A DNA stretch of 55,955 nt from Bdellovibrionales bacterium. Its GTDB lineage: Bacteria; Bdellovibrionota; UBA1018; CAIMNF01. The stretch spans positions 1 to 55,955 of the forward strand of contig JBEIJY010000014.1 of NCBI GenBank assembly GCA_040380025.1, written 5' to 3'. Positions 18,001 through 27,000 of this stretch are shown here, piece by piece. Each line of letters opens with the position of its first letter. Positions within the stretch are counted from its first letter, which is position 1. Position numbers: made by a program.

Positions 18001-21000
18001 AAAAGTGAACGCATGAGATTCGAGATCCGGTCGACCTGCGAGATGATGATTTCGAGATCCCTCTTCAACCCGGGTTGGTCGCGGTTCTTCATGAGCATCA
18101 CCTCCGACCGACCCCGGATCACACCGAGCGGTGTGCCAATTTCGTGCGCCATGCCCGAGGCGAGAACCCCGACCGATGCCAACCGCTCCTGAATGAGCAT
18201 GCGTGCATCCCGCTCCTTCAGATCGGCCTGCAGGCGCATGCGTCCCATTGCATACCGGACCGCGCGCTCAAGAAGTGCCGGGGTCACCTCGTCCCGCACC
18301 AAAAAATCCCCCGCTCCGAGGGCAACTCCATCGGAATCCAATCCGTCTTTTCCCGGATCTCCGATCACGACAACCGGCGGTGCGGAGGTAAGATCCCTCA
18401 GGCGAACCAGAAAATCCCGCGCCTGTTCGACTCCCACAGAATCACTGAGCAGAATCACTCCCGGAAACCCCGTGGAGGCGAGTTCGAGGATGTGGCCGGC
18501 CGAGGAGCTCCACTCGAGCACAAACTCCTGACCCGGCAAGGATTCGATCATGTCAGAAAAACCTTGATACTCATCAAGGTCGACACTGTGGAGCAAGAGG
18601 CGCTTCGATTCATGATGACGCAGAAAGGGACTCATCCGGCATCGGGTGTATCACACCGGAATCGATTCAAAAAAGCCTTGTTTTCCATCAATTCTTCAAA
18701 CATTCTTTACTGAAAATCCCTGCATTTTCGCTATCCCATTCGAGAATCCTTGGTGTATGAAAATTCACGAAACATGTGAATGGGGTGAAACACATCATGA
18801 GCGACACAAAAGGGAACATCATCATCATCGACGACGACCGCGAAATGCGGGTGCTGGTTTCGGATTTCTTCCGGGGGCTCGGATTCCGAACGCACATCTT
18901 CGGGCTTGCCAAAGAGGCGCTCGATGCCGTCTCGCCGGGCGGGGCCCTGGCCGAGTCCGGTTCTGAGGGAGACATTGACGTCGTGATCTCGGACATCCGG
19001 ATGCCCGAGATGGACGGAATCCAGCTGACGGAACTCCTGCGCGAGAAACGACCCGAGATCCCGGTGGTGCTGATCACCGCTTTCGGAAGCGTGGAAACCG
19101 CAATCGAAGCAATGCACAAGGGCGCCTACCATTATGTTGTGAAGCCCTTCAAGCTGACCGAGCTCGAGGCAACGGTGATCAAGGCCCTAGAGTTCCGGGC
19201 TCTTCAAAAGGACAATACGGCCCTTCGCGCTGAGGTCCGGAAAGGCTGGAACTTCGGGAACGTGATTGGCAAAAGCGACAGCATGAAGCGCATTTATGAT
19301 CTCGTGTCGCGGATCGCCGGTGCGAATTCGAACGTGCTGATCACCGGCGAAAGCGGTACCGGAAAGGAAATGATCGCGAAGGCGATCCATGAGAGCGGAC
19401 CGCGGGCGAACAAACCGTTCGTGGCGATCAACTGTACGGCAATTCCCGAGAACCTGCTCGAGTCTGAACTGTTCGGACACGCGAAGGGCTCGTTCACGGG
19501 TGCGATTCAACGAAAGCGCGGGCTTTTCGAGGAGGCAAACGGCGGTACGATCTTTCTGGACGAGATCGGGGACATGAATGTGCTCTTGCAATCGAAACTG
19601 CTCCGGGTGATTCAGGAGCGGAAAATCCGCGCTGTGGGGGAAAACATTCCGATCGATGTGAACGTGCGGGTGATTGCGGCCACGCACAAGGATCTCCGGA
19701 CTGCCATGAAAGAGGGGCGCTTCCGCGATGACCTGTATTATCGTCTGAGTGTGATTCCGATCCAGATTCCCCCGCTCCGGCATCGGAAGGAGGACATTCC
19801 TCTTCTTGCCGAGCATTTTCTCAAAAAATATTCTGCCTTGAACCAGATGAAGGTAAAGGGCTTCACCAAGCGGGCCATTGCGAAGCTGATCGGAATGAAG
19901 TGGGAAGGAAACGTGCGCGAGCTCGAGAATGTGGTCGAGCGCGCAATCGTTCTTTGTTCGCAAACGCTCGTGGATGAGAATGACATTCCCACTCCCGAAG
20001 CCCAGACACCGGATGAGTTTTTCGGCGAGTCGACCTCGGATTATCCGACACTCACCACGCTCGAAGAGCGATACATTCGCCTGATTCTCGAGAAGACCGG
20101 CGGACGCAAGGACAAGGCATCGCAGATTCTCGGCATCAACCGCAGGACCTTGTATCGAAAAGAGCGGGAATACGGCATGGTTCCGCTTTCCACCCCCGAA
20201 CCTGATGAATTGGGCGAAGAGGACCTGAGCGAGAACATGATGGATGTTTGAGGAGAGAGGAAGCGGATGAATCCCGCCGGCCGGGGAAAGGCTTAAACTT
20301 GCCCGTCCTCCGGCCGGTACCCATCCGGATCAAAAGCTTTGCAAGCGGGGTGCCAAAGGAAACGGTGCGTGCAACAAAACCGAATGGCACCGGCCTTGCT
20401 TCGATGAGAGTCGATGAAGTCGAAAAAATACGTGATTTTGGCTCTTTTTTTCGCTCTCGTGATCTCGGGCGGAATCGCCCTCTCCCTGACCGGGGAACCG
20501 CCGCGGGAACCCGTACTCCCGCAGGGGACAATTGTGGAACACAAGGGGCGGAAATATCGCATCGAAACCGACGAGAACCTGCACCGGGTCCGCGTGTTTT
20601 ATGATCTCGATCAAAAACCCTATCCGACCGGGATTGTTCTTTTGCTGAAGCGAAAGGACCAGCCTTCCCGGAGAATCAAGCTCGGGCTCACCGAAACCAC
20701 TCGGGAATCGGTGGTCTACTCGGGCCTTGTGCCTTCGAATGTGTTGATCTCGGGCGGGGTGAGCTTTCAGATCAAAGAGACCAGATGAATCCTGAGTGAT
20801 TGAGCGGAATCGGAAAATGAAATCCGGTCACCATCGTTTTTCGACGAGGCCTGTGCTCAGTTTTTTCAGGTAGGTGGTGGACTTCAGCGCCGGGGGCGGA
20901 AGCTCCGGCACCGGGGACGAAACCGGCTCCCGAAGCCAGCGCGAGGCAAGCTGATCGAACAAGCGCAGATACCCGAGCAAGGTATACCGGCCAAAGTGGG

Positions 21001-24000: not shown

Positions 24001-27000
24001 CATTGGTATTTCGCAAGTTCCTTTTCCATTTCAGCTCCCCGCGTTTTGTTCCCGGAACCACGATTCATTCCGCTTCAGATAATCCAGATAGGCGCCGAAT
24101 TTGCGTTCATAAACCGCCTGATCGGCCCCGGGTTCGAACACCCGGGCGACTTCGATCCGCGATCCGATCTCTTCCATCGACATCTCGCCCGTTGCCACTA
24201 GAGCCAGTGCGGCCGCGCCTTTCGAGTTCGCGGTTAGGGGATCCTTCATCTGTTCGATCGGGATTCCGAGCGTATCGGCAAGGATGCGACCCCAAACCGA
24301 CGAGCGAGCGCCTCCCCCGATGAAGCGAATCGACTCGAAGTCCCGGCCGCAAAACGATTCGGTGTGTTCCTTCAGCCAGCGAAGATTCAGCGCGACGCCT
24401 TCCATCACGGCACGAATCAGGTGCTTCTGCTCGTGACGCAGGGACAGATTCACAAAGCCACCCCGAAGATGCGAGGCATCCGAGGGAGAGCGTTCTCCGT
24501 TCAGCCAGGGGAAATAATATAACCCCTCCGAACCCGCGGGCACTGTCTCGGCCAGAGCATCCATGCGCGAATACGCATCCTCGGGCGCACGCTCGCGGGA
24601 AACGCCGTTTGCTGGGAACAAAATCCGGTTCTTCAAGAACTGCAACGATGCCCCTGCCGTTTGTTGCTCGTTCACCATGAGGTAACGCCCCGGGATCCCC
24701 GATGGAATGCTTGCGATATTATGAAACAAATCAGCCTTTTTGAAGGGCACATGACAGATGATCCACGCCGAGGTTCCGATATACAGATGCGGGTCGAAAT
24801 CGCGCACTCCTCCCGAACCTACGGCGCCCGAGTGAAGATCGGGCGTCCCCGAGACTACGACGGCATCGGCGGGGATTCCGAATCGGGAGGCGACCTCGGC
24901 ACGCACGGTTCCCAGAATGGAATTCACAGGCACAAGCTCGGGGAGTTTTTCGGGGTCGATTCCGCTCTTTGAGATCAATTCGGTAGAGTATCGGATATTT
25001 CCGATCTCACGATTGTCGGTGAGCCAGTGCAGGGTGATCGAATCGAACGAAGCAGCCGCGCGGCCGGTCAGATGAAAATTCAGATAATCCTTCGGTTCGA
25101 GGAACACCGAGGTTTTTTCGTAAATCGCGGGACGCTCGCGCTTCAAAAAAAGAATATGCGAAATGGGGTCTTTTCCGGAGCGGGTCGGAGCCCCACCCGT
25201 GATGCGAATCCACTGAAGGGTCGGAATCAGTCCGTATCCATCGACTTTGATCAGCCCGTCCGTGAGTCGAGCGGCGTCGGGGGCCCCGCGGGAATCCATC
25301 CAGTTGATCGCGTTCATGAGCGGCTCGCCCGAGCGCGAGAGGGCCACCGTTCCCGACCACTGCGAGGTCACGTTCATGACTTTCACCCGAGCCAGAGCAT
25401 CGCGGTGGTCGCAGGCGATGGCATCGATTGCGGCCTCGATGCCGAGAATCCAGTCGGAGGGCCTTTGCTCGACTCCGCGCTCTCCGTCGAACACCAGCGG
25501 CACTTCCCGGAACGCGGAGGCGATCAGGCGAAGCTCAAAATCAAAGACCGAGACCTTCGGCCCGGAGGTTCCGAGGTCGATGATAAGAACAGTGGGCGGC
25601 GCGACCATACGAAAAGAGTAGCACCGTTCCCTTGATGACTAAGTGCAACAATTTACTTCCGGTCGTCTTTGCCCGAAGAAGACGAGCCAAAGAAGCTGTC
25701 GCGTGCGGTGAGCGCCACCAGATCGCGCACGCTTTTGTTCATGCCGTCCACGGAGCCGTCCAAAAAGAAGAGGTTTCCTTTGGAATTCTCGGTGATCTGC
25801 TTCAGGGACTCGGTCCACATGCTGAACAAAATAAAGGAAGAATCGAGGTTCGACCGCACCAGCTCGCCGGCCGCCGCACTCATTCCTTTCGCCACTTCTT
25901 CCCGGAACCTCGCCACCGCCTGCCCGCGAAGCACCGCCGCGTTCATCTCGGCCTCGGCCTGGATCCGGATGGCGTTCCCCTCGGCCTCAGCCGCCTTGGT
26001 CTTCGTGATCAGCAAGGCCTGGCCCTCGTTCTCGGCGGCCGCCTTCATGTTGTTCGCGGCCACGACCTTGCTCATACTTTTCATGACTTCTTCGTCAAAC
26101 GTCACGTCGTTCACCTGAAGATCGATCAGATGATACCCCCACTCGGCCAGATGATGGTCCATGTTGTCTTTCACGGCGTTCGTGATCTCACTTCGAAGCG
26201 AGAGAATCTCGGATTGTCTCTTCGTCGCGACGAACGAGCGGATGCTTCCCTCGACGCTTCTTGCAAGAGTCTGCATGAAGCTCCGGTAATCCATGAACTT
26301 GAAGGCGACATTCTTGATCGTCTCTTCTTCGGAATTCATGACCGAGTAGAGCAACATGGCCTTGAAGTGCACATTGGCCTGATCCATCGTCACGGCCTGG
26401 AACTGGAGCTCCACCGATTGATTCTGGAGGGAGATCCGCGAGAACACCTGCTCGATGACGGGAATCTTGAAGTTCAGCCCCGCTCGAAGGGTGCGGGAGT
26501 ATTTTCCGAACAGGGTCAGGACCACGACCGTGCCCTGCTGGACCGTCACGATTCCGCTCAGAAGAATGATGATGAAAACAACGACCAGAAAAAAGAACCA
26601 AAGAGAGAATTCCATGGGTACCGGTCTTAGCACAATTTCAGATCCTTAAGTAGATTCTGAAAGAATCCGATCTCACAATCCATCGGGCAAAACGGCGACC
26701 ACGAAGAACACGACTCCAGAAGAGGAATCCTGACGGATTTCAAAGTGAATGTCGGCCTGTTTGAGCCGGAAGGCAAATCGCTTCCCCTCGCTTGCGGGAT
26801 CGCCGGCCGGATGCCGTTCCCGCTGGGAGCGCGGCCGGGGGTCCCATGCGAGCGTTTCTTCGATCAACTCCTGAAGATTGAGCTCGCGCGCTTTTTGGAG
26901 CGGCTCTTCGAGGAATCGGACCGCATATCGGGGAATTTCTCCCTCCACCCAACCGCTCCGCGCCTCCGGAACTGAATCCGCATAAGCGACATAAGGCTTC

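Follow-up and report, generated by a model that had tools for sequence, protein, structure and literature searches.

Which enzyme provides a bacterial sphingosine-1-phosphate (S1P) lyase with its phosphorylated substrate? Bacterial S1P lyases have been crystallized and even used as tools, and S1P cleavage has been shown for StSPL, the lyase of Symbiobacterium thermophilum (PMC3148216, PMC6148460); degradation of S1P by this enzyme is reported both in vitro and in vivo (PMC3148216). The sphingosine kinases listed in the table of a 2018 review come from human and yeast only (PMC6148460), and our literature search found no paper naming a partner kinase of a bacterial S1P lyase, nor one on the kinase described below as a base kinase. 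The question is raised by a 55,955-nucleotide window of a Bdellovibrionales genome (contig JBEIJY010000014.1), the whole stretch of DNA analyzed here, in which an FGGY-family kinase (K), an S1P lyase (SPL), and a neutral ceramidase are encoded side by side. We propose, with a probability of about 0.6, that this operon converts ceramide via a sphingoid base and its 1-phosphate into a fatty aldehyde and phosphoethanolamine, K being the candidate base kinase.

Organization of the operon

The host, a predatory-type bacterium, carries three minus-strand genes in a row, in the order K, SPL, neutral ceramidase, with a spacing of 1 nt at both junctions. K (24031..25608, minus strand; ORF call and Pfam FGGY_N/FGGY_C) comprises 525 aa and is a candidate sphingoid-base (2-amino-1,3-diol) 1-kinase. 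The ORF for SPL spans 22518..24068 (516 aa from ATG 24068). The preferred start is ATG 24029, which is directly preceded by GGGGAG and lies 1 nt past the TGA of K (TGA-a-ATG, 24027..24033, minus strand), giving a protein of 503 aa (22518..24029, minus strand; ORF call and StSPL match). Likewise, ATG 22516 of the ceramidase lies 1 nt past the TGA of SPL (TGA-c-ATG, 22514..22520, minus strand). The ceramidase (20828..22516, minus strand; ORF call and Pfam PF04734) has neither a signal peptide nor a C-terminal domain. The three tightly packed, same-strand genes of a preliminary description of this locus are thus confirmed, although its title wrongly called the kinase fused: K, SPL, and the ceramidase are three separate ORFs.

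Such an arrangement would suit a single ceramide-degrading operon, cytoplasmic and translationally coupled. The signal-less neutral ceramidase would free the sphingoid base from ceramide, K would use ATP to phosphorylate the C1 hydroxyl of this 2-amino-1,3-diol, and the PLP lyase SPL would break the C2-C3 bond of the base-1-phosphate, yielding a long-chain aldehyde and phosphoethanolamine.

Lyase and ceramidase

The closest solved relative of SPL is StSPL (3mad; 638.5 bits over residues 59-516), followed by human SGPL1 (4q6r; 431.6 bits), the yeast enzyme (3mc6; 400.8 bits), and that of Burkholderia (394.4 bits). SPL is a full-length homologue of the characterized S1P lyases, whose scores lie far above that of the best related decarboxylase (111 bits). 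Its motif SVDTHKYGY aligns with the same motif of StSPL, and the lysine of DTHKYG presumably binds PLP. SPL probably cleaves long-chain base 1-phosphates in vivo.

The ceramidase contains the N-terminal catalytic domain of its family (PF04734; 307 bits, cut-off 32.1) and scores 225 bits against the Pseudomonas aeruginosa ceramidase (2zws) and 191 bits against human neutral ceramidase (4wgk), while remaining below the cut-off of the NCBIfam neutral ceramidase model (203.1 bits versus 1200). The alignment with 2zws begins at residue 4 and takes in THTHNAPGG, WFAVHCTS, PGEFT, and GYANSYAGYVTT, motifs that include the Zn site. No match to 2zws is found past approximately residue 531; the canonical C-terminal domain is absent, the protein measuring 562 aa versus 646 aa for the 2zws chain.

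The kinase belongs to the FGGY family

Both domains of K exceed their Pfam gathering cut-offs (FGGY_N 100.9 bits, cut-off 28.8; FGGY_C 87.9 bits, cut-off 27). Pfam yields no other domain, and DAGK_cat (PF00781) in particular is not found in K, which can only be an analogue, at most, and not a member of the eukaryotic-type sphingosine/LCB kinase family. K also stays below every NCBIfam equivalog cut-off. The best model is XylB (TIGR01312; 247.1 bits, cut-off 380.25); GlpK (TIGR01311) gives 97.6 bits (cut-off 590.35), and the Arg-Glu pair that binds glycerol is replaced as well. An AlphaFold model of K (pLDDT 92.4) has gluconate, xylulose, and glycerol kinases as top Foldseek matches, at 19-25% identity and TM 0.80-0.84.

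Residues D11, T14, D257, and G431-G432-G433-A434, comprising the catalytic Asp and the ATP-binding glycine motifs, are invariant across 63 orthologues (alignment A1), D257 aligning with the Asp of the GDQQ motif of glycerol kinases. Of six positions that we take to be the glycerol contacts of the E. coli glycerol kinase, four are kept (W103, Y125, D257, and the aromatic W282). Where glycerol kinases have R83-E84, all eight K sequences of alignment A2 have W84 followed by Ser or Ala at position 85, W84 being invariant in 63 of 63 sequences of alignment A1; at these distal substrate positions, E. coli XylB has Met-His and K has Trp-Ser. The predicted headgroup site is glycerol-kinase-like, with Trp-Ser in place of Arg-Glu on a distal side that, going by two alignment columns, may be hydrophobic.

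Co-distribution of kinase and lyase

The genomic context of SPL was surveyed in an independently assembled set of 80 SPL loci, 71 of which have enough flank, the other nine having less than 800 nt upstream. K lies on the strand of SPL in 59 loci, out of 80 in total or 71 with usable flank: upstream within 300 nt in 50, upstream at 1.1-4.1 kb in eight, and downstream in one (L078). Twelve loci lack K even though their upstream flank extends over at least 4.6 kb. The best tblastn segments share 39-68% identity with K, and the K-bearing loci belong, by record titles, to Bacteroidota, Chloroflexota, Myxococcota, Bdellovibrionota, Actinomycetota (Acidimicrobiia), and Bacillota. Eight of ten genomes with a K-less SPL locus hold a K orthologue elsewhere (45-58% identity); in two, none was found genome-wide with this query. 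Reciprocally, a search with K revealed SPL downstream in 10 of 12 metagenome loci with usable downstream flank, and 300 sampled Bacteroidota genomes yielded one more distant K match (32% identity), in a genome without SPL. Across phyla, K is accompanied by this type of SPL, also where the two genes are unlinked. No third gene is shared, the next cluster among 825 clustered ORFs occurring in seven loci only.

The preliminary description had placed K at 64 of 80 SPL loci, 57 within 300 nt, with 28-62% identity and in six phyla, and had likewise seen no third common gene. The pairing, the number of phyla, and the lack of a third gene stand, whereas the counts and the identity range give way to those above. 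Of the phyla it named, Bacteroidota, Chloroflexota, Myxococcota, and Bdellovibrionota are retained; the flank of the Spirochaetota locus (L060) is too short for a verdict, and Actinomycetota and Bacillota now figure among the six. The Swiss-Prot identities given there for Arabidopsis DPL1, CerN, and xylulokinase agree with the matches obtained here to PDB chains.

The module in the host and its order

Among 41 genomes of the order to which the window belongs, K is present in eight; seven of these have SPL (at least 60% identity) next to K, and in the eighth the contig ends there. A neutral ceramidase occurs in six of the eight K genomes versus none of the 33 without K, and it adjoins SPL in G317, G319, G328, and the host (G000). 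K, SPL, and ceramidase form one patchy accessory module within this order. Across the 80 SPL loci, SPL is followed by a ceramidase in just three besides the present one (L065, L072, and L077; Bdellovibrionales/Oligoflexia); only this Bdellovibrionota lineage has added it to the K-SPL pair, the core conserved in many phyla. A serine-palmitoyltransferase (SPT)-like gene, on the other hand, is core in the order (38 of 41 genomes), and because of this distribution we read the patchy module as one that turns over or scavenges (or detoxifies) sphingoid lipids rather than making them. A second SPL-like paralogue is found in 13 of the 41 genomes, independently of K.

The host genome (98% complete) contains no DAGK_cat (PF00781) gene and no xylose isomerase. 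GlpK and K are its only FGGY genes, and its single alpha-oxoamine synthase scores 419 bits to Sphingobacterium SPT versus 329 for the best BioF/KBL-type chain. DAGK_cat above the cut-off is equally absent from the K-SPL genomes G318, G321, and G353. However, DAGK-type kinases occur alongside K in four of the eight related K genomes (G317, G319, G325, and G328), with no complementary pattern, so that the view of K as the missing kinase, put forward in the preliminary description, holds for G000, G318, G321, and G353 and not generally. In K-SPL genomes of other phyla, two of five show a KBL-type alpha-oxoamine synthase only (Bacillota G313 and Acidimicrobiia G312), and the synthases of two Chloroflexota K-SPL genomes are ambiguous, so that the substrate there would need to be exogenous or not a sphingolipid.

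The substrate of the kinase

All genomic tests that were run agree with a sphingoid base as the substrate that we infer for K, while three results weaken parts of this reading, leaving it partly supported. Specifically, the full ceramide route with K as base kinase, as first proposed for this locus, is strengthened by the co-distribution, the SPT-like gene in a host that lacks DAGK-type kinases and xylose isomerase, the kinship of SPL to StSPL, and W84-S85, and is weakened by the coexistence with DAGK-type kinases, the genomes with a KBL-type synthase only, and the sugar-phosphate-type inserts of Bacteroidota. These inserts, a GSAM-like aminotransferase and two class II aldolase-like genes, lie between K and SPL at six Bacteroidota loci. 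In favor of the sphingoid-base reading, co-directional aldehyde/alcohol oxidoreductases are occasionally found, namely an Ahr-like Zn-ADH (L077 and L021), an aldo-keto reductase (L037), an SDR (L094, L095, and L082), and a FAR/epimerase-like gene (L031).

Because the Bacteroidota inserts look like sugar-phosphate chemistry, with a class II aldolase/epimerase-like character, they favor an alternative in which K and SPL have as substrate a small 2-amino-1,3-diol or amino-polyol that is not a lipid, with phosphorylation and retro-aldol cleavage giving phosphoethanolamine and a short aldehyde or sugar. The ceramidase-family enzyme would then hydrolyze a different N-acyl compound, and StSPL would cleave S1P in vitro as a side activity. 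To our knowledge, all characterized FGGY kinases act on small sugars or polyols, and this precedent of small polar substrates, the nearest kin of K (xylulo-, glucono-, and glycerol kinases), and the K-SPL genomes lacking a recognizable SPT are in line with such a substrate. However, no sugar isomerase or sugar-transporter operon is present among 101 loci and five unlinked K loci inspected, the ceramidase lies 1 nt from SPL and is co-distributed with K-SPL only, and an invariant Trp takes the place of the polar Arg at the distal position of the headgroup site. Moreover, SPL scores 638 bits against StSPL, for which cleavage of C18 S1P is described (PMC3148216). We consider a small substrate unlikely, though worth keeping in mind.

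The glycerol-kinase-like headgroup positions, together with the DAGK_cat kinases beside K in four of eight related genomes and the K-independent SPL-like paralogue, would also fit phosphorylation by K of some other lipid or glycerol-like headgroup (e.g., ceramide, a monoalkyl- or monoacylglycerol, or a fatty-alcohol derivative), another, unrecognized kinase making the substrate of SPL. This is improbable, as four K-SPL genomes (G000, G318, G321, and G353) have no DAGK_cat above the cut-off and the strictness with which K accompanies this SPL type, also when unlinked, is difficult to account for unless the product of K is the substrate of SPL. That K is an ordinary xylulokinase-type sugar kinase with a metabolically meaningless position next to SPL, as annotations reading xylulokinase or FGGY-family carbohydrate kinase and the best NCBIfam model (XylB) would have it, is highly implausible given the score below the XylB cut-off (247 versus 380), the lack of xylose isomerase in the host, the same-strand adjacency (59 of 71 usable loci, six phyla) with co-occurrence when unlinked, and the rarity of K orthologues, the one distant match (32%) in 300 Bacteroidota genomes coming from an SPL-less genome.

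The sphingoid-base reading can be extended to the family: the odds are slightly in favor of K orthologues constituting a new, FGGY-fold class of sphingoid-base 1-kinases, unrelated to the DAGK type, that feeds widespread bacterial S1P lyases and, with a cytoplasmic ceramidase, makes up a self-contained ceramide degradation operon. If so, a sugar-kinase fold would have been convergently recruited to a lipid substrate, the use of S1P lyases by free-living bacteria would be explained, and sphingolipid turnover could be followed with a gene marker in soils, waters, and guts, all of them rich in sphingolipids of bacteria and eukaryotes.

Comparison with known systems

In its proposed reaction order and end products, the operon matches eukaryotic sphingoid-base degradation (neutral ceramidase, then SPHK1/2 or yeast Lcb4/5, then SGPL1/Dpl1), the lyase and the ceramidase being homologous in both. 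The kinases differ, with a DAGK_cat fold in eukaryotes and an FGGY (actin-like ATPase) fold in K; unlike in the eukaryotic route, none of the three host proteins has a signal or membrane segment, and a single operon encodes them all. StSPL (PDB 3MAD, 3MAF, and 3MAU) is likewise a soluble S1P lyase and the closest solved relative of SPL, whereas the conserved FGGY partner and the ceramidase set the latter apart from StSPL as portrayed in the literature cited above. The P. aeruginosa ceramidase CerN (PDB 2ZWS) aligns with the host enzyme over the N-terminal catalytic domain and the Zn-site motifs; the host enzyme, however, lacks both a signal peptide and a C-terminal domain and shares an operon with K and SPL, while CerN is secreted and is not known to be linked to a lyase. 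Finally, K has the fold, catalytic Asp, and ATP motifs of GlpK, XylB, and gluconokinase, and four of six glycerol kinase headgroup positions, but in contrast to these FGGY carbohydrate kinases it is partnered in the genome by a lipid lyase and not by genes of sugar catabolism.

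Gene organization of the operon

Three genes on the minus strand of the window encode an FGGY-family kinase (K; 25608-24031, 525 aa), a sphingosine-1-phosphate lyase (SPL; 24068 or 24029 to 22518, with two possible starts) and a neutral ceramidase (22516-20828, 562 aa). A single base separates the TGA of K from the SPL start at 24029, an ATG with GGGGAG in front of it, and one base likewise lies between the SPL TGA and the ceramidase ATG. The three are translationally coupled but separate genes; they had been described as fused in the preliminary description, which the separate ORFs with 1 nt between genes do not bear out.

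A gene of the SPFH/Band-7 (stomatin/flotillin-like) family (25653-26633, minus strand) lies 44 nt upstream of K, between K and trmO, which is also on the minus strand. At the sister loci L065 and L072, trmO is found directly upstream of K and the SPFH/Band-7 gene is absent from between; in the window it is a possible operon member. Just past the ceramidase gene, positions 17493-20251 carry a histidine kinase gene (minus) and a gene for a sigma-54-dependent response regulator (plus); a sigma-54 regulator also adjoins the unlinked K gene of another genome (G004). Two short ORFs downstream of the ceramidase gene (118 and 124 aa; 20248-20788, plus strand) and a 433-aa ORF near the operon (29045-30346, minus strand) have no Pfam match.

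Family assignments and the active site of K

K contains FGGY_N and FGGY_C domains (Pfam) and scores below every NCBIfam equivalog cut-off, with 247 vs 380 for xylulokinase (XylB), 149 vs 649 for gluconokinase and 98 vs 590 for glycerol kinase (GlpK). Gluconate, xylulose and glycerol kinases can be superposed on its confident AlphaFold model (pLDDT 92.4), at an identity of only 19-25%. Orthologues of K are publicly named 'xylulokinase' or 'FGGY-family carbohydrate kinase', and the corresponding ESM Atlas clusters are automatically named xylulokinase or carbohydrate kinase only.

The window SPL matches the crystallised lyase of Symbiobacterium thermophilum (StSPL) with 638.5 bits, human SGPL1 with 431.6 and yeast Dpl1 with 400.8, the nearest decarboxylase scoring 111. 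StSPL is reported to degrade sphingosine-1-phosphate (S1P) both in vitro and in vivo (PMC3148216). In the third protein, PF04734 (307 bits) identifies a catalytic domain of the neutral-ceramidase type, with motifs that align to those of the Pseudomonas aeruginosa enzyme, while the protein's score is far under the NCBIfam equivalog cut-off (203 vs 1200). In the alignment to the P. aeruginosa enzyme it has no C-terminal domain and, since the alignment begins at residue 4, no signal peptide. Judged from these family assignments, including the ceramidase without a signal peptide, all three proteins look cytoplasmic.

Across 63 orthologues of K there is no variation in the phosphate-1 motif (D11, G13, T14), in D257 (the catalytic Asp) or in the GGGA adenine motif. 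K was aligned to three glycerol kinases (GK), one from the window's own genome (G000) and two from related genomes, and E. coli GK numbering was transferred to the alignment via a PDB match. K residues W103, Y125, D257 and the aromatic W282 stand at the positions of GK W103, Y135, D245 and F270, which we take to be glycerol contacts. The columns of GK R83 and E84, likewise taken as glycerol contacts, are occupied by W84 and S/A85 in K and by Met-His in E. coli XylB. From these two columns we infer a site for a three-carbon, glycerol-like headgroup whose distal side is aromatic and free of cations, as would be expected for a substrate of the form HO-CH2-CH(NH3+)-CH(OH)-alkyl.

Pairing of K and SPL across genomes

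Eighty SPL loci from genome contigs were searched with K by tblastn. K is located on the same strand, upstream and at most 300 nt from SPL in 50 of these, and at 1.1-4.1 kb upstream on the same strand in 8 more. One locus, from a Bacillota MAG (L078, 7001-9960), has the reversed order SPL-K with 9 nt between the genes; a 910-aa ORF suggesting a fusion there arises by extension out of frame, and the two genes are separate. At 12 loci with 4.6 kb of flank or more, K was not found by tblastn, and at the other 9 the flank is shorter than 800 nt. Thus, the K-SPL adjacency noted in the preliminary description is confirmed, with counts slightly below those claimed. According to record titles, K-bearing loci belong to Bacteroidota, Chloroflexota, Myxococcota, Bdellovibrionota, Actinomycetota and Bacillota.

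Ten genomes with no K visible at the SPL locus were searched in full. Eight carry an unlinked K orthologue (45-58% identity), and in the remaining two (G307 and G310) K was not found genome-wide with the window K as query. One of the eight, in a Bacteroidota genome (G002:C22:16596-18156; L116 6591-8160), is broken into two pieces by TAG and TAA stops; an aldehyde dehydrogenase gene adjoins it in divergent orientation. Ribosomal, FBPase and beta-lactamase-fold genes are among the unrelated neighbours of the unlinked K genes, around which no sugar-utilisation context was seen.

Conversely, a search of metagenome contigs with K returned 21 loci, 12 of them with more than 300 nt downstream. SPL follows on the same strand in 10 of these 12. 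At one locus (L094) the two genes are separated by an SDR gene, and an SDR gene is all that is seen downstream of K at two others (L082 and L095). Clustering of 825 ORFs revealed no widely shared third gene: SPL was present at 73 loci and K at 51, the next cluster reaching 7. Co-occurrence in Bacteroidota gave, beyond G001, one distant K match in 300 sampled genomes, K being too rare there to be informative.

Additional genes at K-SPL loci

The additional co-directional genes vary by lineage, and several encode oxidoreductases of aldehydes or alcohols, which could process a fatty aldehyde. Zn-dependent alcohol dehydrogenase genes lie directly upstream of K at an Oligoflexia locus (L077, 3117-4160), where the product has the NADPH aldehyde reductase Ahr as its best model (325 bits, below the cut-off of 470), and at a Chloroflexi locus (L021, 2993-4039), where the product was assigned by Pfam. 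Besides the SDR genes, an aldo-keto reductase gene follows SPL at L037 and a FAR/epimerase-like gene is placed between K and SPL at L031. At two Myxococcales loci, SPL is followed by a gene for a DUF1295 membrane protein (L042, 7306-8142; also L046). This family has relatives among enoyl reductases of the steroid-5-alpha-reductase type, so that the protein may reduce a 2-enal or 2-enoyl product.

Six closely related Bacteroidota loci (L017, L018, L020, L023, L061 and L076; e.g. L061 3859-6846) count against a lipid substrate, as the genes inserted between K and SPL encode a class III aminotransferase resembling glutamate-1-semialdehyde aminomutase and two class II aldolase/epimerase-like proteins; three of the six also have an inserted gene for a 23S-rRNA-intervening-sequence protein. 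The aminotransferase was considered as a phosphoethanolamine phospho-lyase, an assignment not supported by its best matches, which are glutamate-1-semialdehyde aminomutases.

Distribution within the order

We searched 41 genomes of the order, G000 included; as related genomes are not independent samples, only counts are given. Eight of them have K: one belongs to a different family, and the other seven are among the 17 searched for the genus. An SPL with 60% identity or more was found in exactly seven of these eight, always directly adjoining K; in the remaining one, G325 (87% complete), K sits at a contig end. Six of the eight also have a neutral ceramidase gene, vs none of the other 33. It directly follows SPL in the window and in G317, G319 and G328, whereas in G318 and G321 it lies elsewhere in the genome.

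A gene resembling serine palmitoyltransferase (SPT) is present in 38 of the 41 genomes. Sphingoid-base synthesis thus appears to be a core trait of the lineage, with K, SPL and ceramidase forming a patchy accessory module. Because the SPT-like gene is core while the module is patchy, the module fits a role in turnover, scavenging or detoxification, not synthesis.

Independently of K, 13 of the 41 genomes have another SPL-like paralogue of about 440-457 aa, which shares 42-48% identity and lacks the first ~70 residues; it is absent from G000. SPL-like enzymes without K thus exist, a result that weakens the case for K as the base kinase. Examples are G331:C11:684258-685532 (L134 7214-8536) and G317:C3:447194-448492. 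In G331 its neighbours encode ClpB, three proteins without Pfam matches, an NTP-transferase and an APH-family kinase, and no adjoining ceramidase gene was seen.

Other kinases and the possible source of sphingoid bases

The 2.35-Mb genome G000 is 98% complete. Neither a xylose isomerase gene nor a gene of the DAGK_cat family (PF00781), to which, to our knowledge, all sphingosine and ceramide kinases belong, was found in it, and its FGGY genes are two only: K and one that is clearly GlpK, matching glycerol kinases of the PDB with 491 bits. Non-orthologous displacement would give K and DAGK_cat complementary distributions within the genus, an expectation that failed: DAGK_cat exceeds the cut-off in 4 of the 8 K genomes (G317, G319, G325 and G328) vs 5 of 8 tested genomes lacking K. 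The argument that no other kinase is available holds only for G000, G318, G321 and G353.

The single alpha-oxoamine synthase of G000 has SPT as its best NCBIfam model (526 bits, below the cut-off of 640), and it matches Sphingobacterium SPT structures with 419 bits vs 329 for the best chain of BioF/KBL type. Its gene is surrounded by ruvCAB, a subtilase-like gene and genes for TPR proteins; a Pfam scan revealed no further sphingolipid-synthesis genes nearby. Alpha-oxoamine synthases were also compared in five K-SPL genomes of other phyla. The Myxococcales enzyme leans towards SPT, those of two Chloroflexota are ambiguous, and the Bacillota and Acidimicrobiia genomes have KBL-type synthases only. 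In such genomes K and SPL would have to use sphingoid bases taken from outside, or a different substrate, which weakens the sphingoid-base reading.

Comparison with the known pathway

Genomic context and the alignment favour K as a sphingoid-base kinase in ceramide breakdown, the best available interpretation, to which we assign a probability of roughly 0.6. The preliminary description had proposed this function for the FGGY kinase. A full-text search of openly accessible papers found none that ties sphingoid bases to an FGGY kinase or to a bacterial kinase of any kind. The part of a 2018 review that tabulates these enzymes (PMC6148460) has sphingosine kinases from human and yeast only, beside three bacterial S1P lyases.

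The chemistry proposed for the window operon is that of the eukaryotic route from ceramidase through sphingosine kinase to S1P lyase. The window lyase and ceramidase are homologous to the eukaryotic enzymes, whereas K is not homologous to the eukaryotic kinase. The operon would thus encode a known pathway in variant form, its kinase step taken by a non-homologous enzyme, a proposal that is directly testable.
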